From: Vicinamibacterales bacterium
GTDB lineage: Bacteria > Acidobacteriota > Vicinamibacteria > Vicinamibacterales > UBA8438
DNA length: 64,000 nucleotides
Direction: 5' to 3'
Assembly: GCA_965208165.1 (NCBI GenBank)
Contig: OZ242323.1
Location: 2,864,893 to 2,928,892, forward strand
Positions 8,386 through 61,586 of this stretch are shown in pieces (the stretch's first letter is position 1; every line of letters begins with the position of its first letter). The translations under genes were made by a program, and so were the position numbers. The notes under the pieces are model-generated. The model was not told the origin of the DNA and ran no database searches. It saw nothing but the letters and a program-made list of their open reading frames with translations.

Positions 8386-9624
8386 ATGAACGTCGATCCG
8401 ACGCGGCGCCGCTTCCTCCACACCCTGGCCGTCGGCAGCGTCATCCGGCCGGTGCTCGCCGGCCGCCCCGCGGCGGCGCAGTCGGGCGAGTCGTTCTGGG
8501 AGGAGGTCCGCCGGCAGTTCGCGTTCCGCGAGGAACGGGTGCCGATGAACGCGGCGAACCTGTGCCCGTCGCCCCGGGCGGTGGGCGAGCGGGTGAGCGC
8601 GCTGACCCGCGACATCGACGTCGACTGCTCGTTCCCGAACCGCGCCAAGTTCGGCCCCCTGCTCGAGGCGTCGCGCGAGGCGGTGGCGGCGCAGCTCGGG
8701 GTCACCGCGGACGAGATCGCCCTCGTCCGGAACACGAGCGAGGCCAACAACGTCGTCAACGCGGGGCTCCCCCTCGACGCGGGCGACGAGGTCGTGGTGT
8801 GGGACCAGAACCACCCGACCAACAACGTCGCGTGGGAGGTGCGGGCGGCGCGCTACGGGCTGGCGGTGAAGCGGGTGGCGACGCCAGCCGCCCCGTCGGG
8901 CGTGGACGAGCTGATCGACGTCTTCGAGCGCGCCCTGACCCCGCGCACGCAGGTGCTGGCGCTGACTCACGTCTCGAACGTGAGCGGCGTACGGCTTCCG
9001 GTGCGCGAGCTGTGCGACATCGCCCACCGCCGCGGCATCCACGTCCACGTCGACGGCGCGCAGAGCTGGGGCGCCCTCGACGTCGACCTGCGCCACCTCG
9101 GCTGCGACTCCTGGACGGGCAGCGCCCACAAGTGGTTCCTCGGGCCGAAGGAGGTCGGGCTGCTCTACGTCCGCGCCGACCGCGTGGCGGACATCTGGCC
9201 GAGCATCGTCGCCCCGAGCTGGGGCGGCGAGGTCGAGCCCCGCCCCCGCGGCGCCCGGAAGTTCGAGTCGCTGGGCCAGCGCGACGACGCGGCCCTCGCC
9301 GCCGTCGCCACGACGGTGGCGTTCCACGACCGCCTGGGCATGGCGCACGTCGAGGCGCGCATCGTCGAGCTCGCGACGGTGCTGAAGACCGGACTCGCCG
9401 AGGCCGGCTTCGAGCTCGTCACGCCGATGGCGCCCGAGCTGAGCGGAGGTGTCGTGATCGCCGCCCGTGCCCCGGATCGGCGGGGTTCCCTGGTGACCGC
9501 GTTGTACGAGCGGTACGGCATCGCCGGGGCCGCCACCGGCGGGCTGCGCCTCTGCCCGCACGTCTACAACACCCTCGAGCACGTTCGTCGCGCGGTTCAC
9601 GGTGCGGCGGCGCTCCGGGCGTGA
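8386..9624 (+). CDS. Class V aminotransferase-fold PLP enzyme (cysteine desulfurase / isopenicillin-N epimerase-like) with Tat signal
   Basis: 412 aa with SD AAGGAG upstream. N-terminus MNVDPTRRRFLHTLAVGSVIRPVLAGRPAAAQ carries a twin-arginine motif. PLP-lysine block SAHKWFLGPKEVGLLYV. Confidence 0.8.
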   Translation: MNVDPTRRRFLHTLAVGSVIRPVLAGRPAAAQSGESFWEEVRRQFAFREERVPMNAANLCPSPRAVGERVSALTRDIDVDCSFPNRAKFGPLLEASREAVAAQLGVTADEIALVRNTSEANNVVNAGLPLDAGDEVVVWDQNHPTNNVAWEVRAARYGLAVKRVATPAAPSGVDELIDVFERALTPRTQVLALTHVSNVSGVRLPVRELCDIAHRRGIHVHVDGAQSWGALDVDLRHLGCDSWTGSAHKWFLGPKEVGLLYVRADRVADIWPSIVAPSWGGEVEPRPRGARKFESLGQRDDAALAAVATTVAFHDRLGMAHVEARIVELATVLKTGLAEAGFELVTPMAPELSGGVVIAARAPDRRGSLVTALYERYGIAGAATGGLRLCPHVYNTLEHVRRAVHGAAALRA

Positions 9625-9809
9625 CGACTCCGACGTCAGCCCCTGGCGGCGCTCCGGGCGTGACGCCCCCGACGTCAGCCCCTGGCGGCGCTCCGGGCGT
9701 GACGCCCGCGACGTCAGCCCCTGGCGGCGCTCCGGGCGTGACGCCCGCGACGTCAGCCCCTGGCGGCGCTCCGGACGTGACGCCCCCGACGTCAGCCCCT
9801 GGCGGCGCC
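9606..9809 (+). repeat. 39-bp tandem repeat x5.2 that reiterates the last codons plus TGA stop of the upstream gene
   Basis: Units start at 9606, 9645, 9684, 9723, 9762 (partial unit at 9801). Unit: ggcggcgctccgggcgtgacgcccccgacgtcagcccct. Unit 1 contains the real stop (TGA 9622-9624). Confidence 0.95.
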
Positions 9810-10289
9810 CCGCATTGCACCGAGGCCTCGACCGGTACGCCGGCGCGTGGCAAGCGCGCCCGCAGGCCGAGGCCGCATAGGGTCGGCGCCACCGTCAAGG
9901 AGCGATCAGCGCCCCGGCGAGCGTCAGGAGCGCCCGCGGGCCGAGGCGCGCCTATGCCTGGCAAGGGGTAAAGAGGGCGCAAGTTGGGTATATTGCAGCC
10001 GCGAACTGCATGTGCGGCACGGCAACCGCAGCCTTGAAGAGGTAGCCGCCCCCGGCAAGCAGCCCGTCCGGCCAACCCAACCGGAGGTCTGCGCCGATCA
10101 CGCCAACCTCCGGCGGGCGTCGTCGGGCGGCAATCGGAGGCCGTTGCGCGACCCTGCGGTCGCGTGGGGAGTTTCGCCGGCCCTGAGCTCCTGCGGTGAC
10201 GATTGCCGGGCCCCAAGCGGGATGCACCGCCGCTCGAATGCAGCGGAGACCCCCACCGCGCGCTGCCGACCGACCGAGACGGGACGCCC

Positions 10290-13273: not shown

Positions 13274-13311
13274 CGCCCCGGGAGTCTCGCGGCAACGAGA
13301 CTCCCGGGGCG
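13274..13311. other. Perfect 16-bp-stem hairpin/palindrome in the arginase-porin divergent region
   Basis: CGCCCCGGGAGTCTCG-cggcaa-CGAGACTCCCGGGGCG. The GGGAGTC/GACTCCC core resembles the hairpin of the dispersed repeat family. Confidence 0.9.
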
Positions 13312-13503
13312 GCCGCGGGGTCGCGCTGCGGCGTCCACCGCGTTGCGACGCCCCACCACCACCCTTCCGAGGGAGTCGCTCCGGCGGGAAGCAGAAAGGC
13401 AAAGCGCGGCCGCGGGGTCGCGCTGCGGCGTCCGCCGCCTTGCGACGCCCCCACCGACCCTTCCGAGGGAGTCGCTCCCGCGGGAAGCCACGGAAAGGCA
13501 AGA
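13310..13503. repeat. 97-bp tandem direct repeat x2
   Basis: cggccgcggggtcgcgctgcggcgtcc...cttccgagggagtcgctcc..gcgggaagc starts at 13310 and again at 13407, with a few substitutions. Confidence 0.9.
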
Positions 13504-14932: not shown

Positions 14933-14957
14933 CGAGCTGAGGCCGGCGTCCAACGAC

Positions 14958-15375
14958 AAGCCGACCGTCATCAAGAGGAACCTGCGGGGACCGGCCCGAC
15001 GACGCCATTCGTACCGCGCTCCGCCAGGGAGGCGCCATTACGGACCGCCGTCCCGCGTCCGCACCTGCCGGGCCCACGAGCGGTTCGCGACGTACCAGTC
15101 GACGAGCCGCTTCACGCCGTCCCGCCACGCCGTACGCGGCTCCCAGTCGAGCAGCCGCTTCGCCTTCAAGCCGACCGTCATCAAGAGGAACCCGCGGGGA
15201 CCGGCCCGACGGCGCCATTCGTACCGCGCTCCGCCAGGGAGGCGCATCACGGACCGCCGTCCCGCGTCCGCACCTGCCGGGCCCACGAGCGGTTCGCGAC
15301 GTACCAGTCGACGAGCCGCTTCACGCCGTCCCTCCACGCCGTACGCGGCTCCCAGTCGAGCAGCCGCTTCGCCTT
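14958..15375. repeat. ~209-bp tandem duplication spanning the 3' end and stop of the epimerase gene plus ~80 bp downstream
   Basis: 14958-15166 is near-identical to 15168-15375. The distal copy keeps a 43-codon C-terminal fragment (KAKRLLDWEPRTAWRDGVKRLVDWYVANRSWARQVRTRDGGP) ending in TAA at 15038, versus TGA at 15247 in the intact gene. Confidence 0.95.
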
Positions 15376-19297: not shown

Positions 19298-19397
19298 GGG
19301 ACGTCCTTGCGGCCGGCGGAACGACGCGGGTCCCGTCCGGGGTTGACCGGCACGACCGCGCGTCGGGCGGCGGGGCCGCAGGCGGCGATGGCCGGCC

Positions 19398-19471
19398 GGG
19401 AGTCTGCGCCGCGGAACCGCGCGTACTCCCGGAGATTGGTTGGCGCCGGGCGAAGCCGAAGGCGACGGGGC
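19398..19471 (+). repeat. Copy of the ~80-nt hairpin repeat family (opposite orientation to flanking genes)
   Basis: GGGAGTCTGCGCCGCGGAACCGCGCGTACTCCC + GGAGATTGGTTGGCGCCGGGCGAAGCCGAAGGCGACGGGGC. Its tail touches the glnB stop (cta 19471-19473). Confidence 0.8.
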
Positions 19472-19803
19472 TAGGCCACGTCGGTCTCCCCGGTCCGGAT
19501 CACCCAGCTCTGCTCGACCGGCAGCACGAACACCCGGCCGTCGCCGATCTCGCCGGTGCGGGCCGCGTCCATGATGACCTCGACGGCCTCGTCGACCGCC
19601 TCGTCGGCCACCACGATCTCGACCTTGGTCTTCGGCAGCAGACTGATGTCGTACTCGCGCCCGCGGTAGATGGTGGTGTGGCCGCGCTGGCGGCCGTGCC
19701 CGCGCACCTCGGTAACGGTGATGCCGGGGATGCCGCGCTTCGCGAGCCCGTCCTTGATGACGTCGACCTTGCTCGGCCGCACGATGGCCTTTATCAGCTT
19801 CAT
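19471..19803 (-). CDS. glnB: Nitrogen regulatory protein P-II
   Basis: 110 aa from ATG 19803: MKLIKAIVRPSKVDVIKDGLAKRGIPGITVTEVRGHGRQRGHTTIYRGREYDISLLPKTKVEIVV... with T-loop Tyr51. Confidence 0.9.
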   Translation of the reverse strand: MKLIKAIVRPSKVDVIKDGLAKRGIPGITVTEVRGHGRQRGHTTIYRGREYDISLLPKTKVEIVVADEAVDEAVEVIMDAARTGEIGDGRVFVLPVEQSWVIRTGETDVA

Positions 19804-25537: not shown

Positions 25538-25984
25538 GTGGGCGCCGCGTCACCACGTGCCACTCTGGTCCGCTACACGCTCTACCAGATCCCGGAATGG
25601 GTGCTGGCGGTGGTCGCCGCCATCCTGCTCTACCGGTGGGGCGTCCTGCCGGGCTGGGCCGCGGCCCTGCTCGTGGCGGGCGTGATGGCCAAGGACGCGG
25701 CGCTGTATCCGCTGCTGCGGACCGCCTACGAGAACGACACCTCGACCGCGATCGAACGTCTCGTCGGGCTGCGCGGGGTGGCCGTCGAGCCGCTCGCGCC
25801 GCAAGGCTACGTGCGGGTCCGCGGCGAGCTCTGGCGCTCGGAGGCGCCGGCGGCCGGACGCGAGATCCGCCCTGGCCATCCCGTGACCGTCCAGGCGGTA
25901 CGGGGCACGACGCTGCTGGTCTGCCCCGCGCCGCCGCTCGCGGGGGCCCGGAACCTCGAAAAGAGCGCCGCAGAGGGACGATAA
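25538..25984 (+). CDS. NfeD-family membrane protein (C-terminal OB-fold)
   Basis: 148 aa, GTG start. Two TM helices, then GLRGVAVEPLAPQGYVRVRGELWRSEA...IRPGHPVTVQAVRGTTLLV, the NfeD OB pattern. Confidence 0.6.
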   Translation: MGAASPRATLVRYTLYQIPEWVLAVVAAILLYRWGVLPGWAAALLVAGVMAKDAALYPLLRTAYENDTSTAIERLVGLRGVAVEPLAPQGYVRVRGELWRSEAPAAGREIRPGHPVTVQAVRGTTLLVCPAPPLAGARNLEKSAAEGR

Positions 25985-26382
25985 GCCGAATTCTGTACCC
26001 GCCCCCGCCCGCGAACGGACAGGCGCCAGGCGACGACCATTCCTCTAGCCCCGCCATCGCTGGCGGGGTCGAGCAACCTACCCGGAGGCTTCGGACGGGC
26101 CGCCCTCGAACGCCTCCCTATTCGGTCTTGCTCCGTGCGGGGTTTAGCCTGCCATCCGCCTTGCGGCGGACGCGGTGCGCTCTTACCGCACCTTTTCACC
26201 CTTACCGCCCGGCGAACCGTTAACCGGCACGCCGGGAGGCGGTATGTTTTCTGTGCCACTTTCCTTCAGGTCGCCCTGACCGGGGATTACCCGGCGCACT
26301 GCCCTCCGGAGTTCGGACTTTCCTCCCCACCCGATGCCCCGAAGGGCACCGCGTGCAGCGGTCGCCTGTCCCTCTGCGGCGC
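25965..26382 (-). ncRNA. rnpB: RNase P RNA, bacterial type A
   Basis: The minus strand carries GGGAGGAAAGTCCGAACTCC, GGTAAGGGTGAAAAGGTGCGGTAAGAGCGCACCGCG, GAGCAAGACCGAATAGGG, CCGGGTAGGTTGCTCGA and ACAGAATTCGGCTTAT in the order seen in E. coli M1 RNA. P1 pairs GCCGCAGAGGGAC (5') with GTCCCTCTGCGGC (3'), followed by CTCTTTTC. Ends are +/-5 nt. Confidence 0.93.
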
Positions 26383-26419
26383 GTAGACTCTCGGTGTCTT
26401 CGCTCGGCCCTCCTCCTCA

Positions 26420-26498
26420 GCCCGCCAATCGCCGCCTGCGGCTCCGATTGGCGCCCAGCCAACCCTGCCGGCAGCCTGCACCGCCCACGGCGCGCGCT
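26420..26498 (-). repeat. Degenerate copy of the ~80-nt hairpin repeat family
   Basis: gcccgccaatcgccgcctgcggctccgattggcgcccagccaaccctgccggcagcctgcaccgcccacggcgcgcgct aligns along its length with the copy at 26612-26693. Confidence 0.75.
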
Positions 26499-26613
26499 GC
26501 TAGTGTCCCGTATCAGTGGTTCGCGAAATAATTCAGGGCGACTCTTCTTCCCGGGTCACGGGCGTTCTCACCCATGCGAGATATTTCGCGAACTTCGCTG
26601 GCAGGACACTAGC
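26499..26613. other. 115-bp inverted-repeat element (MITE-like or structured RNA), lower GC
   Basis: Outer arms GCTAGTGTCC (26499-26508) / GGACACTAGC (26604-26613). Inner arms GTTCGCGAAATA (26519-26530) / TATTTCGCGAAC (26582-26593), each containing the palindrome TTCGCGAA. The ~50-bp core is unique. Confidence 0.7.
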
Positions 26614-26693
26614 CCGCCCATCGTCGCCTTCGGCTCCGCTGGGCGCCCAACCAACCCTGCCAGGAGTCTGCACCGTTCTACGGCGCAGACTCC
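26612..26693 (-). repeat. Copy of the ~80-nt hairpin repeat family directly after the stop of the NtrC-type gene
   Basis: Minus strand reads TAG-GAGTCTGCGCCGTAGAACGGTGCAGACTCC-TGGCAGGGTTGGTTGGGCGCCCAGCGGAGCCGAAGGCGACGATGGGCGGGC. Confidence 0.85.
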
Positions 26694-28063
26694 TAGGCGT
26701 CCGCATCCTGCGAGATCCCGTACTGCTCCAGCTTCTTGTAGAGATTGCTGCGCGGGGTGTCGATGACCTCCGCCGTCCTCGAGATGTTCCAGCCGTGCTC
26801 GCGCAGCTTGTCGATGAGGAACGCGCGCTCCGCCCGCTCCTTGAACTCGCGCAGGGTGCCGGCCTGACTCGCGGCGAGGCCCGCCGCGCCGTCCCGGACC
26901 CCCGTCCGCACCACCGCGCGGACGTCGCCCACCTCGATGGTCTCGCCCGGGGTCATCACCAGCAGGCGCTCCACGGTGTTCCTCAGCTCGCGGATGTTCC
27001 CCCGCCACCGCTCCCCGGCCAGCGCCGCTGTCGCGGCCGGGGTGAAGTCGCGGGGCCGGAAGTTGTTGTCCCGGCAGAACAGCGCCGTGAAGTGGCGGAC
27101 GAGCCGCGGAATGTCCTCCCGCCGGTCGCGCAGCGGCGGCACCCGGATCGGGATGACGCTGAGCCGGAAGTAGAGGTCCTCGCGAAAGCGCTCGTTGTCG
27201 ATGTCCGCCTCGAGGTTCCGGTTGGTGGCCGCGAGCACGCGCACGTCGACCTCGATGGTCCGGGCCGAGCCGAGCCGCTCGACCTCTCCCTCCTGCAGCA
27301 CGCGCAGCACCTTGGCCTGGGTGCGGAGACTCATGTCGCCGACCTCGTCGAGGAAGATGGTGCCGCGATCGGCCTGCTCGAACTTGCCGATCTGCTTCTG
27401 GGTCGCTCCCGTGAACGCGCCCCGCTCGTGCCCGAACAGCTCCGACTCGATCAACTCTTCGGGCAGCGCGGCGCAGTTCACCTGCACGAACCGCTCGCGG
27501 CCCCGCCGGCTGTTGCGGTGAATGGCCCGCGCCACCAGCTCCTTCCCGACGCCGCTCTCCCCCTGGATGAGCACCGTGCTCGTCGTTGGCGCGGCCCGCC
27601 CGATCGCGTCCGTCACCCCTCGCAGGGCCGGGCTCTCCCCCACCATCTCGTGACGGATCTCGGCGAGCGCGCGGTAACGGCTGACCTCGGTCTTGAGCCG
27701 GTGCTGCTCCAGGGCGTTCCGGATGTTGACCTTGAGGACGTCCCCCTCGAACCCCTTCTCGAGAAACGTGAACGCGCCCTGCTTCGTCGCCTCGACCGCG
27801 GTGCTGATGGTGCCGTGGCCGGAGATGACGATCACGGGGACGGGGTCGCCGCGCTCCCGCAGGCGCCGCAGGACCTCCAGGCCGTCCATCCCCGGCATCT
27901 TCACGTCGAGCAGCACGAGGTCGACGCTCTCGGCGCCGAGCAGGTCGAGGCCTTCGCGGCCGCTGCGCGCGAACAGGCACTCGTAGCCCTCGTACTCGAG
28001 AGTCATCTTGAGGGCGTCGCGCACCCCCTCGTCGTCGTCGACCACCAGAATACGCTCGGTCAT
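26693..28063 (-). CDS. Sigma-54-dependent response regulator (NtrC/AtoC family), no adjacent histidine kinase
   Basis: Receiver domain ([14 protein letters not shown] ... [11 protein letters not shown]), AAA+ sigma-54 interaction domain ([30 protein letters not shown]) and a Fis-type HTH ([25 protein letters not shown]). GTG 28066 and ATG 28063 are both possible starts. Confidence 0.9.
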
Positions 28064-34721: not shown

Positions 34722-35010
34722 CGTACCACACGGCGGGGGCCGCACGCCGGCCCGGTCGGGGGGCCGGCCCCGTCACGGCCGGCCGCCACCTCGACTCGCC
34801 TGCAAGAACCGGGCACATGTGGCGGAAAGCGAGGGTCCGTGGCGGTTGCCCCAGGAATAGCGTCTCCATCCGAGGATGATCGCCGGCGGCGTCCCGGCCC
34901 GGCCGCGAGGACGTACGCGTACGATGCGCGCAGGCGTCTCGATCGGGATTGCGGGTCTTGCGCTCAATCCCGCCCGCGGCCAGGCGCGCGGCACTCGTCC
35001 GGTCCGCCGG

Positions 35011-35245
35011 GCCCGCCCATCGTCGCCGGCGGCTCCGCTCGGCGCCCCACCCGACCCGCCGGGAGTCAGCGCCGTTTCACGACTCCCAGCCCGCCCATCG
35101 TCGCCGGCGGCTCCGCTCGGCGCCCCACCCGACCCGCCGGGAGTCAGCGCCGTTTCACGACTCCCAGCCCGCCCATCGTCGCCGGCGGCTCCGCTCGGCG
35201 CCCGACCGACCCTCGGGGAGTCAGCGCCGTCTTCACGGCGCGGGC
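35011..35245 (-). repeat. Three tandem 78-bp units of the hairpin repeat family; the last unit overlaps the dapF stop codon
   Basis: gcccgcccat anchors at 35011, 35089, 35167. The final hairpin is GGAGTCAGCGCCGT-cttc-ACGGCGCGGGCTCC, whose right arm is the dapF terminal codons (QEPAP-stop, tca at 35233). Confidence 0.9.
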
Positions 35246-36036
35246 TCCTGCCCGAGCCAGCGCCCGGCCATGACGATGTCCGCCCACCCCGTCAGATGGA
35301 TGCCCTCGTCCGTCCAGCGCACGCGCTGCACGCCGCCCGGCGAAACCACCTCGACCTCGCGCGAGGCGCCGCCGAAGGCTGCCGCCGCCACCGCGCTCGC
35401 GCACGCTCCGGTGCCGGACGCGGCCGTCGGACCAACGCCGCGTTCCCAGATGAGTATCCGAAGCCGGGAGGCCGACTCCACCTCGACCAGCTCGACGTTG
35501 GTGCCTTCGGGGAACGCCGGATGGGTGGCGAGGGCGGCGCCGAGACGGTGGAGGCGGCGCTCGCTCACCTCGCCCCCGAGCACGATGCACTGGGGATTCC
35601 CGACCGACAGCTCGACGACCTCGACCTGCTCGCCGCCCGCCTCCACCTGCCGTCGACGGAGCCCCACCGGCGAGCCCATGAGGGCGTCGAACGTGGTCCG
35701 CCCGCCCGCCGACCCGACCCGCGCCAGTGGTACCGGGCCGGCATCGGTCTCGATGACCGGGCGACCGAGAGAGGGCCGTCCGCGGACGACGATCGCGGCC
35801 AGGCAGCGCACCGCGTTGCCGGACACCTCCGCCCGCCCCCCGTCCGCGTTGTAGAGGACCATCCGGGCGCCGGCCTCGGTGGCCGCGTGGAGCACGAGCC
35901 CGTCTCCCCCCACACCGGTGTGCCGGTCGCAGAGGCGGCGGGCCAGCGCGGCGCGCCCGGCCTCGGCGGTCTGCTCGATGGGAACGAAGAGAAAGTCGTT
36001 GCCGTAGGCGTGGGCCTTGACGAGGTCGAGTGGCAT
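35233..36036 (-). CDS. dapF: Diaminopimelate epimerase
   Basis: 267 aa. MPLDLVKAHAYGNDFLFVP..., active-site Cys blocks (NADGGRAEVSGNAVRC, ERGVGPTAASGTGACA). Confidence 0.85.
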   Translation of the reverse strand: MPLDLVKAHAYGNDFLFVPIEQTAEAGRAALARRLCDRHTGVGGDGLVLHAATEAGARMVLYNADGGRAEVSGNAVRCLAAIVVRGRPSLGRPVIETDAGPVPLARVGSAGGRTTFDALMGSPVGLRRRQVEAGGEQVEVVELSVGNPQCIVLGGEVSERRLHRLGAALATHPAFPEGTNVELVEVESASRLRILIWERGVGPTAASGTGACASAVAAAAFGGASREVEVVSPGGVQRVRWTDEGIHLTGWADIVMAGRWLGQEPAP

Positions 36037-38290: not shown

Positions 38291-38409
38291 GACTGTGCCG
38301 TCGGGGTGTCGTGCCGCAGACCGGTCCGGCGGGCGGTGCGCCGCAGTCCCGGCGCCCGGCGAACGCGCTCCCCGGGCCGCTGCGATCCAAGTCCATGATA
38401 CGACGAAAA

Positions 38410-38803
38410 GCGGCGGGTGGAGCAGTCCGCGCCGTCCTGCGCCCGGACGCCGAATCAGTCGAGGAACGTCCGGGGACCAGCGCTCGATCACCATCGGGCC
38501 GAACAGAAGCGGCGGGCGGAAGCAGTCCGCGCCGTTTCTGCGCCCGGACGCCGCATCGGTCGAGGAACGTCTGGGACCAGCACTCGAGCACCATCAGGCC
38601 GAGCAGGAGCGGCGGGCAGTCCGCGCCGTTCTGCGCCCGAACGCCGCATCAGTCGGGGAACGTCCGGGGACCAGCGCTCGAGCACCATCAGGCCGAGCAG
38701 GAGCGGCGGGCGGAAGCAGCCCGCACCGTCCTGCGCCCGGACGCAGAATCAGTCGAGGAACGTCTGGGACCAGCGCTCGAGCACCATCAGGCCGAACAGG
38801 AGA
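38410..38803. repeat. ~93-101-bp tandem repeat x4 reiterating the last 18 codons plus stop of the AsnB-like gene
   Basis: tca/tcg-gtc(g)agg anchors at 38455, 38556, 38649 and 38749 (the real stop). Each unit is [~47-nt spacer with GCAGTCCGCGCCGT..CTGCGCCCGGAC hairpin] + [tcagtcgaggaacgtctgggaccagcgctcgagcaccatcaggccgaacagga]. Confidence 0.9.
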
Positions 38804-43789: not shown

Positions 43790-44169
43790 AGGCCAGCCCG
43801 CCCGTCGAGGCCTGACGGCGTCGCTGGACGCCCGACCGACCTCCAGGGTCCGCGCCGTGCTACGGCGCAGACTACGGCGTCGCTGGACGCCCGACCGACC
43901 TCCAGGGTCCGCGCCGTGCTACGGCGCAGACTACGGCGTCGCTGGACGCCCGACCGACCTCCAGGGTCCGCGCCGCGCTACGGCGCAGACTACGGCGTCG
44001 CTGGACGCCCGACCGACCTCCAGGGTCCGCGCCGTGCTACGGCGCAGACTACGGCGTCGCTGGACGCCCGACCGACCTCCAGGGTCCGCGCCGTGCTACG
44101 GCGCAGACTACGGCGTCGCTGGACGCCCGACCGACCTCCAGGGTCCGCGCCGTGCTACGGCGCAGACTC
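43790..44169 (-). repeat. Hairpin-family copy followed by a 59-bp sub-unit repeated x6; the last unit contains the GMC gene stop
   Basis: tcgctggacg anchors at 43821, 43880, 43939, 43998, 44057, 44116 (period exactly 59). Unit: acggcgtcgctggacgcccgaccgacctccagggtccgcgccgtgctacggcgcagact. One substitution in copy 3. Confidence 0.95.
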
Positions 44170-45732
44170 CTGGCGCGCAGCCCCCTGCGTCCCCCGCGCC
44201 GCCATCTCGCCGGGACCGCAGCGGAGCTCCGTCCCCCGGATGTGATCGGCCGCCCGAAGGGCCTGGGCGACGATGGTCAGGCCCGGGTTGACGGCCGCCG
44301 ACGACGGAAAGAACGACGCATCGACGACGAAGAGGTTCTCGACGTCGTGCGACCGGCACCAGGGATCGAGCACGGAGCGCCGCGGATCGGTCCCGAAGCA
44401 CAGGGTGCCGCACTGGTGGGTCGTGTTGTGGATCGACCGCGGATGGACGTAGACGATCCCGAGCCCGAGCCGGCGCAGCATCCGCCGGACCTCGCGGACG
44501 AGCCGGTCGTGCGCGCGCACGTTGTTCGGGCGGTAGTCCAGCCGGATGCGCCCGCCGGCGTCGACCGTCACCCGGTTGTCGGGCCGGGGCAGGTCCTCGG
44601 TCATCGCGAGCCAGTCGAGCCCCCGCGCCACCCAGTAGTCGAAGAAGCCCAGCGGCATCCACGGGACGGCGGTCTGGGCCATGACCCCGTGGGTCCGCCC
44701 CTGGGACTGGATCTGCCCGAGCGGGTACCCCCCGTCCGGCCCCTCGAGATAGAAGTCGTTGATCGCCACCGTCTTCTGGAACTCGGTGTGGTTGCGGCGG
44801 AACGGATGGAACCCCGCCATCATCGTCGCGAGGTGCGCCATGTAGCGCCGCCCCACGAGACCCGAGGAGTTCGCGAGGCCGCGCGGGTGCTTCCCGTCGG
44901 CCGACTGCAGCAGCAGCCCCGCCGAGTTGACCGCCCCGCACGACAGGACCACGAGGGACGCCTCGACCCGGCGCCGCTCGCCGGCGTGGTCGACCTCCAC
45001 CGCCTCGACCCGGCGGCCGCCGGGGTCCGTCAGCAGGCGCCGGGCCCGCGCCCCGGTCCACAGGGTGACGTTGTCGCGCCCGGCCGCGGGACGCACGCAG
45101 CAGACGTCGGCGTCGCTCTTCGCGTCGCGGTGGCAGGGAAACGAGTTGCACGTGTTGCACAGGATGCAACGCCCTGGCTCTCCCGGCCCCCGGAGCCCCA
45201 GGGGCAGAGGCGAGGGATGGAGACCCTGCTCGCGGATGCGGGCCACCCAGGCCTCCACCTGCTCCGCGTGAGGAACCGCGGCGTGCGGGAAGGGCTTCCG
45301 CGGGGCCTCGGTCGGATCCGCACCGGCGGTCCCGTGCACCTCGTACAGCCGCTCCGCCCGCTCGTAGTACGGCTCGAAGGCATCGTAGTCGACCGGCCAG
45401 GCCGGCGAGACCCCGTCGACGTGCTCCGTCTCGCCGAAGTCCTCGCGGCGCATCCGGAAGAGGACGCTGCCCCAGAACTTGGTGTTGCCCCCGACGCAGT
45501 AGTGCATGTACGGGCGGAAGGGCTTGCCATCGCCGTCCAGCCAGCGCTCCGACGTCTGGTAGCGCCGATGCTTCCAGACCGCCGCGGGGTCGCGGTTCTC
45601 GGGCTCCAGGGGCACGAAGCGGCCCCGCTCGAGCAGCAGGATGCGGGCCGGGGAGTCGGCCAGGGCGCGGGCCACGGTGCCGCCCCCGGCGCCGGTCCCG
45701 ATGATGACGACGTCGTAGCGCTCGCTCGGCAT
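44155..45732 (-). CDS. GMC-family FAD oxidoreductase
   Basis: 525 aa. N-terminal YDVVIIGTGAGGGTVARALAD FAD motif. C-terminal catalytic region ...HQCGTLCFG... Confidence 0.8.
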   Translation of the reverse strand: MPSERYDVVIIGTGAGGGTVARALADSPARILLLERGRFVPLEPENRDPAAVWKHRRYQTSERWLDGDGKPFRPYMHYCVGGNTKFWGSVLFRMRREDFGETEHVDGVSPAWPVDYDAFEPYYERAERLYEVHGTAGADPTEAPRKPFPHAAVPHAEQVEAWVARIREQGLHPSPLPLGLRGPGEPGRCILCNTCNSFPCHRDAKSDADVCCVRPAAGRDNVTLWTGARARRLLTDPGGRRVEAVEVDHAGERRRVEASLVVLSCGAVNSAGLLLQSADGKHPRGLANSSGLVGRRYMAHLATMMAGFHPFRRNHTEFQKTVAINDFYLEGPDGGYPLGQIQSQGRTHGVMAQTAVPWMPLGFFDYWVARGLDWLAMTEDLPRPDNRVTVDAGGRIRLDYRPNNVRAHDRLVREVRRMLRRLGLGIVYVHPRSIHNTTHQCGTLCFGTDPRRSVLDPWCRSHDVENLFVVDASFFPSSAAVNPGLTIVAQALRAADHIRGTELRCGPGEMAARGTQGAARQESAP

Positions 45733-45738
45733 CGCGGT

Positions 45739-46779
45739 TCAGGTTGCCGGCCCGCGGGCCGCCGCCGAGGGTGCCCTCGCCGTGTCTGCCGCGTAGATCT
45801 GGTCCATGATCCGCTGGTCGTCCATGGCCGTCTCCAGGCTCATCTCGGGCTGGCGTCCTGATCGAATGGCGTCCGCGAAGTCACGGTACATCGCCTGGTA
45901 GCCGCGTATGTCCCGCCACCCCGGCAGGAGCAGCCGCGGAAACCCGCGGCTCCGCACGAGGACGAAGCCCCCGTTGGACTCGAACGTGATGACGCCGTCC
46001 CGCCCGTACAGCTTCGACAGCCGGACCCCGCGCAGCAGCGAGGGCACCTCGCGCGAGTAGAACAGGGCGCCGGAGGCGCCGTTCGCGTACCGGAACGCGG
46101 CCAGCATGCTCTTCGCGCGTCGGTCCGGACCCCGCTGCGAAGGCGGCGGCGCGAACCCGACGGCGGCGGTGATGGCCGGCCCCAGGCTGTTGGCGAGGTG
46201 CAGCCAGTGGATGCCCTCCTCGAAGAAGGCGTCGCCGCCCGCCATGCTCTCGTCGTTGCGCCAGTCGTCGGCCGCCTTCAGCCGCTCGACCACCGTCGTG
46301 AACTGGGCGAGCAGCAGATCGCCGATGACGCCGCGGGCGAGGAGGCGCCGCAGACAGACGGCCAGCGGCTTGTAGTGATCGTTCTCGCCGACCAGGACCA
46401 CCCGGCCGGCGCGGTCCCGCGCCGCCTGCACCCGACGGTAGTCCTCCATGCAGAGGAAGGCGGGCTTCTCCACGATCACGTGCTTGCCGGCCGCCAGCGC
46501 CTGCAGGGCCAGATCGAGATGGAACCGAGGCGGCACCGCGACGACCACCGCGTCCACCCGGGGGTCGTCGATCGCCGCCGCGTAGCCGTCGTAGCTGCAC
46601 GCGCCGCGGTACCGCCGCCGACAGGCCTCGGCCCTCTCCCCGTCCCGGCTCGCGTAGCTCCAGGTGACGACCTCCCGCAAGCGCCGCAGGTGGCGGCTGT
46701 GCACCCCGGTGATGAACCCGCACCCCAGGAACGCCAGGCGCACCGGCCCGTCCCGCCGTCCCGCGTCCGAGGCCGTCAT
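45739..46779 (-). CDS. Gfo/Idh/MocA-family NAD(P)-dependent oxidoreductase
   Basis: LAFLGCGFITGVHSRHL Rossmann, HVIVEKP block. Start set to ATG 46779 (MTASDAG...); the track start at 46791 is TTG. Confidence 0.8.
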   Translation of the reverse strand: MTASDAGRRDGPVRLAFLGCGFITGVHSRHLRRLREVVTWSYASRDGERAEACRRRYRGACSYDGYAAAIDDPRVDAVVVAVPPRFHLDLALQALAAGKHVIVEKPAFLCMEDYRRVQAARDRAGRVVLVGENDHYKPLAVCLRRLLARGVIGDLLLAQFTTVVERLKAADDWRNDESMAGGDAFFEEGIHWLHLANSLGPAITAAVGFAPPPSQRGPDRRAKSMLAAFRYANGASGALFYSREVPSLLRGVRLSKLYGRDGVITFESNGGFVLVRSRGFPRLLLPGWRDIRGYQAMYRDFADAIRSGRQPEMSLETAMDDQRIMDQIYAADTARAPSAAARGPAT

Positions 46780-46783
46780 CTCA

Positions 46784-46864
46784 GCCCGCAATTCGTCGCC
46801 TGCCGTTCCGCTTGGCGCCCACCAGCCCTCCCGGGAGTCCGCGGCGTCCTGCGGCCCAGGCTCC
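46784..46864 (-). repeat. Copy of the ~80-nt hairpin repeat family between the GT2 and Gfo/Idh/MocA genes
   Basis: Minus strand reads GGAGCCTGGGCCGCAGGACGCCGCGGACTCCC-GGGAGGGCTGGTGGGCGCCAAGCGGAACGGCAGGCGACGAATTGCGGGC. It ends 5 nt before the ATG at 46779. Confidence 0.75.
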
Positions 46865-50436: not shown

Positions 50437-50931
50437 TCAGGCAGGAGAGTCCGCACCGTTCCGCGGCGCGGACCCCTGGGGGGCCGATTCGCGGGAGACC
50501 GCCTGGAGGGACTTCACCATCACCACCTCCATGCCCCCCTCCGGCGCCCGCCCGATGCGCACCTCGTCCATGAGGCTGCGCATGAAGAAGATGCCCCGGC
50601 CGCTCGACTTCAGCAGGTTCTCGGGGGCCAGGGGATCGGCAATCTCGACCGGGTCGAAGCCGTCGCCCTGGTCGACGACCCGCACCGTCAATCGCTTCGG
50701 ATCGGACGGGGGGGCCAGCCCGAACTCGACGGTGACGAGCTTGTCCTCGATGTCCCGGTTCCCGTGCTTGATGGCGTTGATCACGGATTCGCGGACCGCC
50801 ACCCCGATCCAGTGAATCGAGTCGCCGTCGAATCCGACGATCTTCCCCAGCTCGTCGCTGACGACCTGGACGAAGTCCACCATGTCGAAGTGACTGCGGA
50901 ACGTCAGACGAACGACAGGGTCGCTGGTCAT
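50437..50931 (-). CDS. RsbW/SpoIIAB-like anti-sigma regulatory factor (HATPase_c-type Ser kinase)
   Basis: ATG 50931 (MTSDPVVRLTFRSHFDMVDFV...). N-box AVRESVINAIKHGN, G-box VVDQGDGFD, SSGRGIFFM. Confidence 0.7.
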   Translation of the reverse strand: MTSDPVVRLTFRSHFDMVDFVQVVSDELGKIVGFDGDSIHWIGVAVRESVINAIKHGNRDIEDKLVTVEFGLAPPSDPKRLTVRVVDQGDGFDPVEIADPLAPENLLKSSGRGIFFMRSLMDEVRIGRAPEGGMEVVMVKSLQAVSRESAPQGSAPRNGADSPA

Positions 50932-51168: not shown

Positions 51169-52491
51169 ATGTCGTCCGTCGTCGTGCAACCCGCCGCCCG
51201 TGTCCGCGGCCGCGTCCCGGTACCCGGCGACAAGTCGATCTCGCATCGCTACGCGCTGCTCGCCGCGCTGGCCGAGGGCCGGTCGACCATCGCCGGCTAC
51301 GCGCCGGGGGCCGACTGCGCCTCCACCTTGGCGTGCCTCCGCGCACTCGGGGTCCGCGTGGAGGGGCCCCGATCAGCCGGCGGGGCGACCGGCCGGCCGG
51401 TCGTGATCGTCGACGGCCGCGGCGTCGGCGGCCTCGGAGCGCCGACGGGGCCCCTGGATGCCGGCAACTCCGGCACGACCCTCAGGCTGCTGTCCGGCGC
51501 TCTCGCCGGCCATCGGTTCACCAGCGTCATCACCGGGGACGGCTCGCTCCGCCGCCGGCCGATGCGCCGGATCATCGAGCCCCTCTCGCGGATGGGGGCG
51601 CGGGTGACGGGCGACGGGGGTTGCCCGCCCCTCACCATCGCCGGCTCGCGGCTCGAGGGCATCGACTACACGCCGCCGGTCCCGAGCGCCCAGGTCAAGA
51701 GCGCGGTGCTCCTGGCCGGGCTCCACGCGTCGGGCGACACCACGGTGAGAGAGACCGCCGCCACCCGGAACCATACGGAGCTGGCCTTGCCGATGTTCGG
51801 CGCCGAGCTGCGTCGGGTCGACGGCGGCGTCACGCTGCGCGGCGGACAGCGCCTGCGGGCGGCCGGGCTGACGGTGCCCGGCGACCTGTCGTCCGCCGCG
51901 TTCTGGGCGACCGCCGCCGCCGCCCTGCCCGGCTCGGACGTCACCCTCGAGGACGTGGGGCTCAACCCCACCCGCACGGGCATCCTCGCCTGGCTCCGGC
52001 GGGCGGGGGCGGTCGTGGACCTGCTGCAGGTCATCGAGGACACCGGCGAGCGGCAGGGCTCCATCCGGGTCCGCCACGGCGGCAATCGCGCGCTCACGGT
52101 GGGGCCGGCGGACGTGCCGGGGCTCATCGACGAGCTGCCGGTGCTGGCGGCGCTGGCCACGCATGGCGGCGAGCTGCGCGTGACCGGCGCCGGAGAGCTG
52201 CGGCACAAGGAGAGCGACCGCATCAGCGCGCTGGCCGACGGCCTGCGCGCGCTCGGAGGACACGTCGAGGAGGTGGCGGACGGCTTCCACGTCGCCGGCG
52301 CCCGGCCGCTTCGGGGCGGCGAGGCCGACGCGGCCGGCGACCACCGGCTCGCGATGGCGTTCGCCATCGCCGCCCTCGGCGCCCGGCAGCCGAGCCGAAT
52401 CCGCAACGCCGAGGCCGTCGACGTGTCCTACCCGGGCTTCTTCGATGTGCTGGCGGCCCTCTGCATCCCCAGGCAGCAGTCCGCGCCGTGA
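51169..52491 (+). CDS. aroA: 3-phosphoshikimate 1-carboxyvinyltransferase (EPSP synthase)
   Basis: VPGDKSISHRYALLAALAEG, LDAGNSGTTLRLL, LRHKESDRI blocks. The last codons (QQSAP-TGA) form the left arm of a repeat hairpin. Confidence 0.9.
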   Translation: MSSVVVQPAARVRGRVPVPGDKSISHRYALLAALAEGRSTIAGYAPGADCASTLACLRALGVRVEGPRSAGGATGRPVVIVDGRGVGGLGAPTGPLDAGNSGTTLRLLSGALAGHRFTSVITGDGSLRRRPMRRIIEPLSRMGARVTGDGGCPPLTIAGSRLEGIDYTPPVPSAQVKSAVLLAGLHASGDTTVRETAATRNHTELALPMFGAELRRVDGGVTLRGGQRLRAAGLTVPGDLSSAAFWATAAAALPGSDVTLEDVGLNPTRTGILAWLRRAGAVVDLLQVIEDTGERQGSIRVRHGGNRALTVGPADVPGLIDELPVLAALATHGGELRVTGAGELRHKESDRISALADGLRALGGHVEEVADGFHVAGARPLRGGEADAAGDHRLAMAFAIAALGARQPSRIRNAEAVDVSYPGFFDVLAALCIPRQQSAP

Positions 52492-52640
52492 ATCGGCGCG
52501 GACTGCCGCGGACTGGTTGGGCGCCAGGCGGAGCCGCCGGGCGACGATTGGAGGGCGAGGAGTCCGCGCCGTGGAACGGCGCCGACTCCGGCAGGATTGG
52601 CCGGGCGCCAAGCGGAGCCGTCAGGCGACGATTGGAGGGC
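52476..52640 (+). repeat. Two tandem copies of the ~80-nt hairpin repeat family in the aroA-aroK spacer
   Basis: Copy 1: CAGTCCGCGCCG-tgaat-CGGCGCGGACTG (perfect 12-bp stem containing the aroA stop) + ...GGTTGGGCGCCAGGCGGAGCCGCCGGGCGACGATTGGAGGGC. Copy 2: GGAGTCCGCGCCGT-ggaa-CGGCGCCGACTCC + ...GATTGGCCGGGCGCCAAGCGGAGCCGTCAGGCGACGATTGGAGGGC. Confidence 0.9.
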
Positions 52641-52679
52641 GAGCCGCCCCCGGTTCCGGCCCGGACGCGGCGTCTGCCG

Positions 52680-61372: not shown

Positions 61373-61504
61373 CGTGATTAGACCTCGCGGAGGAGTGTTC
61401 GAAGGCCCGCCCCGAGCGGGCGGGGCCTCCCCTGACGGAGGAGGGGCGATCCGCGGACCGCCCCCGCCGAAGCTCGACTCCCGTCGGAACGCCGAGGAAC
61501 TCCA

Positions 61505-61585
61505 GCCCGCCGATCGTCGCCCGCGGCTCCGCTCGGCGCCCTACCAATCCGGCAGGAGTCCGCGCCCTTCCACGGCGCCGACTCC
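61505..61585 (-). repeat. Copy of the ~80-nt hairpin repeat family downstream of ccmE
   Basis: Minus strand reads GGGAGTCGGCGCCGTGGAAGGGCGCGGACTCC-TGCCGGATTGGTAGGGCGCCGAGCGGAGCCGCGGGCGACGATCGGCGGGC. Confidence 0.85.
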
Positions 61586-61586
61586 C

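Follow-up and report, generated by a model that had tools for sequence, protein, structure and literature searches.

A hairpin repeat at TAG triplets and the shared C-terminal tails of unrelated proteins in a Vicinamibacterales genus

Gene ends in the analysed window

The window analysed here is a stretch of 64,000 nucleotides (C1:2864893-2928892) from a genome of 7.24 Mb and 71% GC whose closest public relatives are metagenome-assembled genomes of uncultured Vicinamibacterales (Acidobacteriota). It carries copies of a short hairpin repeat, and the initial annotation had observed that the genes encoding a GMC-family oxidoreductase, DapF and AroA end in QESAP, QEPAP and QQSAP, respectively, within the left arm and loop of that hairpin; these sequences and their placement are as it cited them. 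A fourth gene, encoding an RsbW-like anti-sigma kinase, reads further into the repeat. The gene ends concerned are the following:

44155..45732, minus: open reading frame (ORF) of the GMC-family oxidoreductase, 525 aa (NCBIfam)
44155-44172, minus: tail of the oxidoreductase, Q-E-S-A-P-TAG (CAG GAG TCT GCG CCG TAG), made up of the left flank CAG, the left arm of the hairpin and the loop TAG, all from the first repeat copy
35233-35250, minus: tail of dapF, Q-E-P-A-P-TGA (CAG GAG CCC GCG CCG TGA), left arm and loop of a repeat copy
52474-52491, plus: tail of aroA, Q-Q-S-A-P-TGA (CAG CAG TCC GCG CCG TGA), left arm and loop of a repeat copy
50437-50500, minus: tail of the RsbW-like gene, ...SRESAPQGSAPRNGADSPA, which parses as ...ESAP-QGSAP-R-NGADSPA before the stop

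Among NCBIfam profiles, the aroA and dapF products match TIGR01356 and TIGR00652, both above cut-off, the oxidoreductase matches GMC-family C-terminal domains, all below the curated whole-protein cut-offs, and the RsbW-like protein has RsbW/SpoIIAB-like matches below cut-off. All of these matches end before the tail, at residue 434 of 443 in AroA, 259 of 267 in DapF, about 502 of 525 in the oxidoreductase and 249 of 269 in the RsbW-like protein. The final ~23 residues of the oxidoreductase, past the conserved domain that stops near residue 502, form a variable tail specific to the genus.

Anatomy and distribution of the repeat

The repeat consensus, built by aligning the regions 3' of genes whose last residues are S/P-A-P, is (C/T)AG, GAGTCTGCGCCG TAG AACGGCGCAGACTC CTGGCAGGGTTGGTTGGGCGCCAAGCGGAGCCGCAGGCGACGATTGGCGGGC, (T/C/G)(A/G)G. 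The unit of ~84 nt is composed of a 35-nt hairpin with a 16-17 bp stem (GAGTCTGCGCCG-TAG-AACGGCGCAGACTC) and a second module of ~45 nt, and is predicted to fold into a strong 17-bp hairpin and a weaker second hairpin (-55 kcal/mol, z = -5.1). With identity to the consensus taken as a proxy for age, the youngest copies carry one TAG immediately 5' of the hairpin, a second in the loop and a third at the unit's 3' end; these positions are called the left, loop and right triplets. The hairpin is a short imperfect palindrome found in more than 100 copies, as in repetitive extragenic palindromic (REP)-type elements. The units are arranged head to tail with periods of 59, 78 and 84 nt; the second hairpin differs in sequence from the first, and inverted doublets (REPINs) do not occur.

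A profile search with nhmmer identified about 728 copies in 601 arrays in this genome, mostly solo, with 93 arrays of 2-6 units. The window contains 16 copies at 9 loci, and the hairpin pattern matches it 25 times compared with 0.18 matches expected by shuffling. Copies 95-99% identical to the consensus are present in all 21 other genomes of the genus examined, while the repeat is essentially absent, with one weak match, from 19 other genera of the order. The repeat is confined to one Vicinamibacterales genus. No Rfam family matches it, the search of the window at gathering thresholds returning an RNase P RNA only. Besides the RsbW-like tail, the repeat loci of the window are:

43792..44173, minus: six truncated 59-nt units in tandem, each with a hairpin that has TAG in its loop and another TAG 12 nt upstream (Tandem Repeats Finder (TRF), 59 nt x 6.0, 99% match; nhmmer)
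35005..35250, minus: array of about three units with a 78-nt period, downstream of dapF (TRF and nhmmer)
52474..52652, plus: two 84-nt units in tandem in the aroA-aroK interval
26601..26694, minus: full copy with the gene's stop at its left flank and left, loop and right triplets all TAG; a regulator gene ending ...DADA TAG abuts GAGTCTGCGCCG
61483..61586, minus: full-length copy in which all three triplets have decayed to TGG
19396..19482, plus: more diverged copy
46779..46864, minus: diverged copy
26416..26493, minus: partial copy, mainly module 2

Long variants of the element also occur, in which extra hairpins (GCGCGACCTTGCGGTCGCG and GGAGTTTCGC...GCGAAACTCC) lie within the second module in a mosaic arrangement (L010, L120; C1(+) 1091099 and 5299803).

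Stop codons at two fixed positions of the repeat

Gene ends were surveyed across the genome in a set of 4,737 ORFs defined by G+C content at third codon positions (GC3), a crude criterion that missed dapF. SAP is the most frequent C-terminal tripeptide in this set (58 genes; the runner-up, AGR, ends 33) and PAP ends another 21; the initial annotation had suggested a survey of such endings, and the pattern is not due to chance. A coding frame enters the 5' side of the hairpin in 180 copies. It stops at the loop triplet in 59 of them and exactly 15 nt upstream in 52; every other offset accounts for at most four genes, and only six copies are read through. Since the gene criterion missed dapF, the 59 loop-stop genes are a minimum. 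Their left triplet is CAG in 41 cases, CGG in seven and another sense codon in the rest. All 52 stops lying 15 nt upstream are TAG, never TGA, which is the majority stop codon of the genome, and each directly abuts GAGTC... (binomial p = 3e-24 given 35% TAG usage). Because the left and loop triplets are 15 nt apart, they share a reading frame.

The copies are strongly oriented, 180 being co-oriented with the upstream gene and 18 facing away from it. Recognition of stop codons as such need not be invoked, since, of the TAGs that fall outside the coding mask, at least 14% are stops, and ~18% of arrays lie on TAG stops. Genes converging on the repeat stop exactly at its right end, GGGC|TAG, in 14 of 45 cases; this end contains CTAG, so a TAG is also offered on the opposite strand.

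Which of the two triplets remains TAG depends on which one terminates the gene. The loop triplet is a stop in 59 of the 65 copies with a sense left triplet, as against 27 of 52 copies with an intact left TAG (Fisher p = 2e-6) and 124 of 294 intergenic copies (Fisher p = 2e-13). The left TAG, in turn, is kept in 52 of 117 gene-abutting copies but in only 19 of 294 intergenic ones (p = 3e-18). Each TAG is conserved exactly when it is the working stop of a gene. These comparisons indicate selection on the loop triplet as a stop codon. The conservation of whichever TAG is in use is indirect evidence for translation of the tails and for a cost of longer read-through.

Orthologues without the repeat mostly end at the residue before the tail

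Gene ends at about 24 loci were compared with those of orthologues. For the loop-stop genes, a chimeric query was made of the C-terminal 90 residues of dapF and 11 further genes, and 60 regions were fetched; 11 genes of the left-TAG class were put through the same procedure. At 10 of the 12 informative loci (aroA, dapF, the oxidoreductase gene, the L27 gene, fabZ and five others), no residue of the native protein is missing, and relatives have their stop codon where the Q codon stands here. At these loci, then, the tail is a five-residue extension of an otherwise intact protein.

The aroA gene provides a graded series within the genus. In genomes lacking the repeat (L007, L011, L014, L016) it ends in ...SICVPA or ...CDPG with TAG at the Q position, ~45 nt before aroK. 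In G017 (L010) it ends in ...CVPR with TAG and the repeat follows directly, and in this genome and six others it ends in ...CxPR/G-(Q/R)xS(A/V/T)P, the version here being CIPR-QQSAP. Repeat-free relatives of further loci likewise stop at the Q position, with the ends IRKE (TAG or TGA), RIDVE (TAG, 7/7), HLPHGR (TAG), ...GPAQ in fabZ (TAG or TGA), ...EHFR (TAG), ...DETE (TAG) and, for L27, ...LPLES (TGA). The dapF tail is present in every member of the genus; the nearest outgroup genus (L236) ends in ...AGRWLG with TGA, that is, at the residue that precedes the Q here.

The oxidoreductase gene, compared at 80 loci, is more variable. Orthologues with at most about 80% identity, largely from other genera, typically stop 2-6 residues past the conserved ...ADHIxET motif (for example, ...ETELRSLS with TGA), some being longer, and close relatives and genus members have variable tails of 15-45 aa, several of which end in ESAP or EFAP. 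In L034 and L039, CGG TAG (...ERAR) followed by a degenerate copy stands where the present gene reads ...GAAR-QESAP.

At two loci, a few native residues have truly been replaced. In rpoC, native ...RDQAVE has become ...RDQESAP, and at a second locus ...IADEGRLRS has become ...IADQEPAP through an 84-nt CAG+core block placed before GAG, six codons ahead of the native TGA.

Two further rearrangements were also noted. In G001 and G002 (L131, L132) the rpmA product, L27, ends in ...LPLESAP, the native GAG TCC coinciding with the GAGTCC of the element as if a 9-nt slip had merged the two. In the aroA-aroK interval of G001 (L002), the repeat and both stops are deleted between AGGC and GGGC microhomologies, and aroA gains 16 new residues, reading into the start of aroK. 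Downstream of fabZ in G013, a TAG AACGGAGCGGCC directly after the gene resembled half an element; its remainder is unlike the repeat and it was treated as a coincidence.

Empty and filled sites and the decay of the flanking triplets

Comparison of filled sites in this genome with empty sites in relatives shows the extent of the insert at four loci:

Locus 1: here CAC TAG [81-nt core] TAG GTCCTGAAGCC; empty relatives CAC TAG GTTCTGAAGCC
Locus 2: here TAG [core] TGG CTCGGCGCC; empty relatives TAG CTCGGCGCC
Locus 3: here TAG [core] CAG ...; empty relatives TAG ...
Locus 4: here TAG [core] GAG ...; empty relatives TAG ...

In addition to locus 1, four loci gave similar pairs. The insert is thus a single 84-nt block adjoining a TAG, with a TAG-like triplet on both sides. 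In relatives that lack the insert, this position is nearly always TAG, the few exceptions being TGA, often as a TGATG that overlaps the start of the next gene.

The flanks of the repeat are TAG or its transition products; young copies have TAG on both sides and empty sites have one TAG. Left and right triplets are identical in 51 of 285 copies (35 expected, p = 0.0005), an excess that insertion of core+TAG beside a TAG explains as well as target duplication does. The triplet correlation, the age classes and the empty/filled pairs agree with more than one of three modes of insertion, namely 3' of a TAG, with duplication of a 3-bp TAG, or as CAG+core 5' of the stop. Of 52 left TAGs, 27 are preceded by G and 20 by C, in line with a third codon position; the AG pairs with CT of the right arm. 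New copies have also inserted on the loop TAG of older ones, as in GCA TCT GCG CCC TAG | GAGTCTGCGCCGTAG, which produces stacked tails such as ...ESAP-QGSAP....

All three triplets lose TAG with decreasing identity to the consensus:

Right TAG: youngest 67%, middle 18%, older 6%
Loop TAG: youngest 100%, middle 63%, older 45%
Left TAG: youngest 47%, middle 25%, older 10%

By triplet, median copy identity falls in the order TAG > CAG > CGG. Decay leads to CAG as well as TGG at the right and loop triplets, and nearly always to CAG at the left triplet. A left CAG adds a C-G pair and makes the stem 2.3 kcal/mol more stable (-35.5 versus -33.2 with UAG); UGG weakens it. The resulting order of stability, CAG > UAG > UGG, agrees with CAG being commoner than TGG among left triplets. 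At four single loci (aroA, L27, the oxidoreductase gene and the RsbW-like gene), the TAG or CAG state differs between species.

The RsbW-like gene illustrates loss of the loop stop. Its tail consists of an old ESAP remnant, a former stop that is now CAG and a second hairpin with the loop triplet CGG, and its frame crosses both arms of that hairpin (QGSAP-R-NGADSPA) to a TGA adjoining the next gene. Relatives end in (Q/R)ESAP with TAG or TGA; in G003, ESAP TAG is followed by an intact element. This genome and G002 have CAG at that stop and CGG or CAG in the next hairpin loop, so that both read through. The initial annotation was therefore right that the frame runs through a degenerate hairpin copy, and the change of the loop TAG to CGG accounts for it.

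Two other kinds of insert share the TAG flanks. An unrelated family of ~105-115 nt, resembling miniature inverted-repeat transposable elements (MITEs) and bearing terminal inverted repeats TGTCC(C/T)G...C(A/G)GGACA, is also flanked by TAG, and adjoins the hairpin element or sits inside it (window 26580-26600, minus, to the right of the copy at 26601-26694; C1(+) 5484745). TAG-flanked insertion is thus not limited to one family here. A third insert of ~113 nt, bounded by TAG...TAG, lies between a gene and its downstream neighbour in four species (L171, L172, L174, L176); the gene is a relative of one in the left-TAG class, and at the same locus G011 (L178 comparison) has CAT TAG ATG without an insert and three others an overlapping TGATG.

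Origin of the tails

These data are best accommodated by the following scheme, which is considered likely as a whole. The repeat, a non-autonomous element, is seen as single inserted blocks of 84 nt at TAG triplets, facing one way relative to the TAG. Insertion at TAG stops would be harmless, and copies accumulate flush with gene ends and co-oriented with the genes because such sites tolerate them. As long as the left TAG is intact, the protein ends normally, as in the 52 genes above. Where the left triplet is CAG, less often CGG or GAG, the frame crosses the left arm (GAG TCN GCG CCG, E-S-A-P) to the loop TAG or TGA, giving the uniform Q-E-S/P-A-P tail of at least 59 genes, among them those of the oxidoreductase, dapF and aroA. 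If the loop stop decays too, the frame runs on through the hairpin, as in the RsbW-like gene. The left TAG would be the native stop or its duplicate. Its T-to-C change would come after insertion; the extra C-G pair that it brings to the stem would favour it, and the loop TAG, as a spare stop, would make it tolerable. Two suggestions of the initial annotation fit this scheme: the hairpin loop does donate the stop, at least 59 genes terminating at its triplet, and its alternative proposal that the element targets a sequence common at gene ends agrees with a TAG target, which is usually the stop codon itself.

Several observations weigh against this scheme or bound it. All four empty-site relatives at the L27 locus have TGA rather than TAG at the Q position, and the insertion before GAG at the ...IADQEPAP locus means that TAG is no absolute requirement. 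The left triplet is CAG in 6 of the 15 youngest copies, which bears on the direction and timing of the TAG-to-CAG change, although several of these follow the ...GGGC end of a previous unit and look array-internal. The identity of loop-stop copies (0.872) is not significantly below that of left-stop copies (0.885, p = 0.28), and independent insertions at one hot TAG could mimic a TAG/CAG polymorphism of a single insertion. Orthologue checks cover the loci described above, the genome-wide gene calls resting on the crude GC3 criterion.

Some of these points would be expected if the tail arose at insertion itself, CAG+core copies entering before or in place of the native stop so that QESAP is acquired at once and the native TAG ends up at the right end. 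Four of the six youngest copies with CAG on the left have TAG on the right, a copy in G002 is flanked in the same way, the CAG+core block before GAG is unambiguous, and neither TAG-target model simply explains the TGA of the L27 empty sites. Nevertheless, the 52 left-TAG copies abut genes whose orthologues have TAG at the same place, right-end triplets are alike in both classes, left-TAG copies are younger than left-CAG copies (p = 0.03), and the same locus can have TAG in one species and CAG or CGG in another, so that this origin of the tail, while possible, seems unlikely.

The principal model of the initial annotation, in which the element inserts into or recombines with the last codons and QESAP replaces the native C-terminus, describes rpoC and the ...IADQEPAP locus. 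As a general rule it fails and is improbable: the other 10 informative loci are complete to the residue before Q, with the relatives' stop at that position, and random insertion predicts three frames, of which only the one meeting the loop stop is seen. Still less credible is an ancestral origin of QESAP as coding sequence, or its selection as a C-terminal tag (for sorting or degradation, for instance), with the nucleotide similarity as a consequence. The uniformity of the tail and the selection on the loop stop might be read in this way, but all that the latter shows is harm from longer read-through. The tail is missing from repeat-free orthologues, which makes the shared ending element-derived by the orthologue comparison that the initial annotation had put forward, and ancestral QESAP coding sequence was rejected on these orthologue ends. 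Intergenic copies have the same sequence, down to the variation at the third position of the Ser codon, a base paired with the right arm; the proteins that carry the tail have unrelated functions (RNA polymerase beta', L27, FabZ, AroA, DapF); and the tail is gained or lost between sister species.

Relation to known repeats

A search for the REP-associated tyrosine transposase (RAYT)/Y1 transposase domain (PF01797) gave no match in the 22 genomes of the genus, this one and 21 congeners, while the same search matched 6 of 14 control genomes; a RAYT-driven REP was rejected for this reason. The consensus has no terminal inverted repeats, its 5' end GAGTCTGCGCCG being unrelated to the reverse complement of its 3' end, GCCCGCCAATCGTC. 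A classical MITE with terminal inverted repeats was likewise set aside: long elements bounded by both ends were sought and only copies interrupted by other inserts were found, a parent insertion sequence (IS) not having been searched for by protein.

Among the closest counterparts are the GTAG-tagged REP elements (Di Nocera, De Gregorio & Rocco 2013, PMC3733652; Nunvar et al. 2010, PMC2817692), GC-rich stem-loops near gene 3' ends. The present family resembles them in being a high-copy, short, GC-rich stem-loop near gene 3' ends, with TAG at the 5' edge of the palindrome and tandem or mosaic layouts. However, the G before TAG is not conserved here, and the AG of TAG lies within the stem, whereas the GTAG tetranucleotide of those REPs is unpaired. 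The family also differs from REP/RAYT systems in lacking a RAYT in all 22 genomes, and from REPs in that its 84-nt doublet consists of two different hairpins head to tail instead of an inverted REP pair. The second, in-frame loop TAG, with its uniform five-residue tail, is a further difference, and no description of such an arrangement was found.

Bacterial MITEs provide a second parallel. Coxiella QMITE1/2 overlap functional genes over the final 1-50 bp and are able to contribute C-terminal residues and stops; EnhC of the Dugway strain has an extension of 33 residues, and another strain has a stop just before the element (PMC5896051). Enterobacterial RU/ERIC-type repeats (enterobacterial repetitive intergenic consensus; Delihas 2007, PMC2759123) are small and non-autonomous, with insertions that overlap gene 3' ends. 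The present repeat is likewise small and non-autonomous and supplies C-terminal residues and stops. Unlike the Coxiella and enterobacterial MITEs, it has no terminal inverted repeats, its target is TAG and its frame relation to the gene is fixed; the TAG target and the fixed frame are what give dozens of genes the same five residues.

In E. coli, a REP located no more than 15 nt from a stop codon reduces translation (Liang, Rudd & Deutscher 2015, in the summary given by PMC12306157). A stable hairpin likewise sits at the stop here: it begins immediately behind the stop, at 0 nt, in 52 genes and surrounds it in at least 59. The loop position is a difference from E. coli, where the REP is downstream of the stop. 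Ribosomes would have to melt the hairpin to terminate, and an effect on expression like that of E. coli REPs is plausible.

In its orientation specificity and the TAG at its left edge, the repeat also recalls the single-strand insertion of IS200/IS605 elements 3' of a fixed target of three to five nucleotides, without duplication, but the Y1 enzyme is absent here. Mycobacterial interspersed repetitive units (MIRUs), attributed to Supply and colleagues in 1997, are reportedly repeats of operon intergenic regions, some in tandem, with frames that run over the stop codon of the gene before and the start codon of the gene after; they are not known to be hairpin-based or to have a TAG-TAG fail-safe.

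REP ends that provide TAG stops and MITEs that overlap gene 3' ends are thus already published, and the family behaves like a known kind of element. It differs in four respects: the lack of a RAYT, the 84-nt head-to-tail doublet, the strict TAG flanks, and the in-frame loop TAG with its uniform tail on at least 59 proteins.

Implications for gene ends in the genus

The repeat is a clean, quantified example of a selfish element that alters the C-termini of proteins and leaves the genes unbroken. A single changed base in the stop codon would lengthen more than 1% of the proteome by an identical five residues, and the damage would be limited by the element's own second stop. For annotation of Vicinamibacterales, it means that some tails, stops and 'conserved C-terminal motifs' are repeat-derived. 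The data also point to a TAG-specific insertion activity in a poorly studied soil phylum. If stop-borne hairpins lower or stabilise expression as E. coli REPs do, ~110 genes would be affected, including rpoC, rpmA, fabZ, aroA and dapF.

TAG accounts for 35% of stops (1,676 of the 4,737 crude ORFs) in this 71% GC genome, and orthologous stops switch between TGA and TAG in close species at several loci. A broader proposal, speculative and rather doubtful, is that the repeat is a RAYT-independent, orientation-specific, TAG-targeting mobile element whose loop TAG has been shaped as a spare stop 15 nt downstream in frame, and that, together with at least one other TAG-flanked MITE family, it is a lineage-specific driver of the amber-rich stops (35% TAG at 71% GC), of TGA/TAG turnover and of the stepwise accretion of ESAP modules at the C-termini of proteins. 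Should the TAG-targeting reading be true, a copy that landed on a stop codon would do no harm, thanks to the spare in-frame stop, even once the original stop had decayed.

Other features of the window

A bacterial class A RNase P RNA (Rfam RF00010, 291 bits) lies at 25966-26377 on the minus strand, between two repeat copies. The window also contains tandem repeats that do not belong to the hairpin family, several of them at gene ends:

9606-9812: 39 nt x 5.3
14957-15375: 209 nt x 2
38408-38799: 100 nt x 4
13309-13488: 97 nt x 1.9

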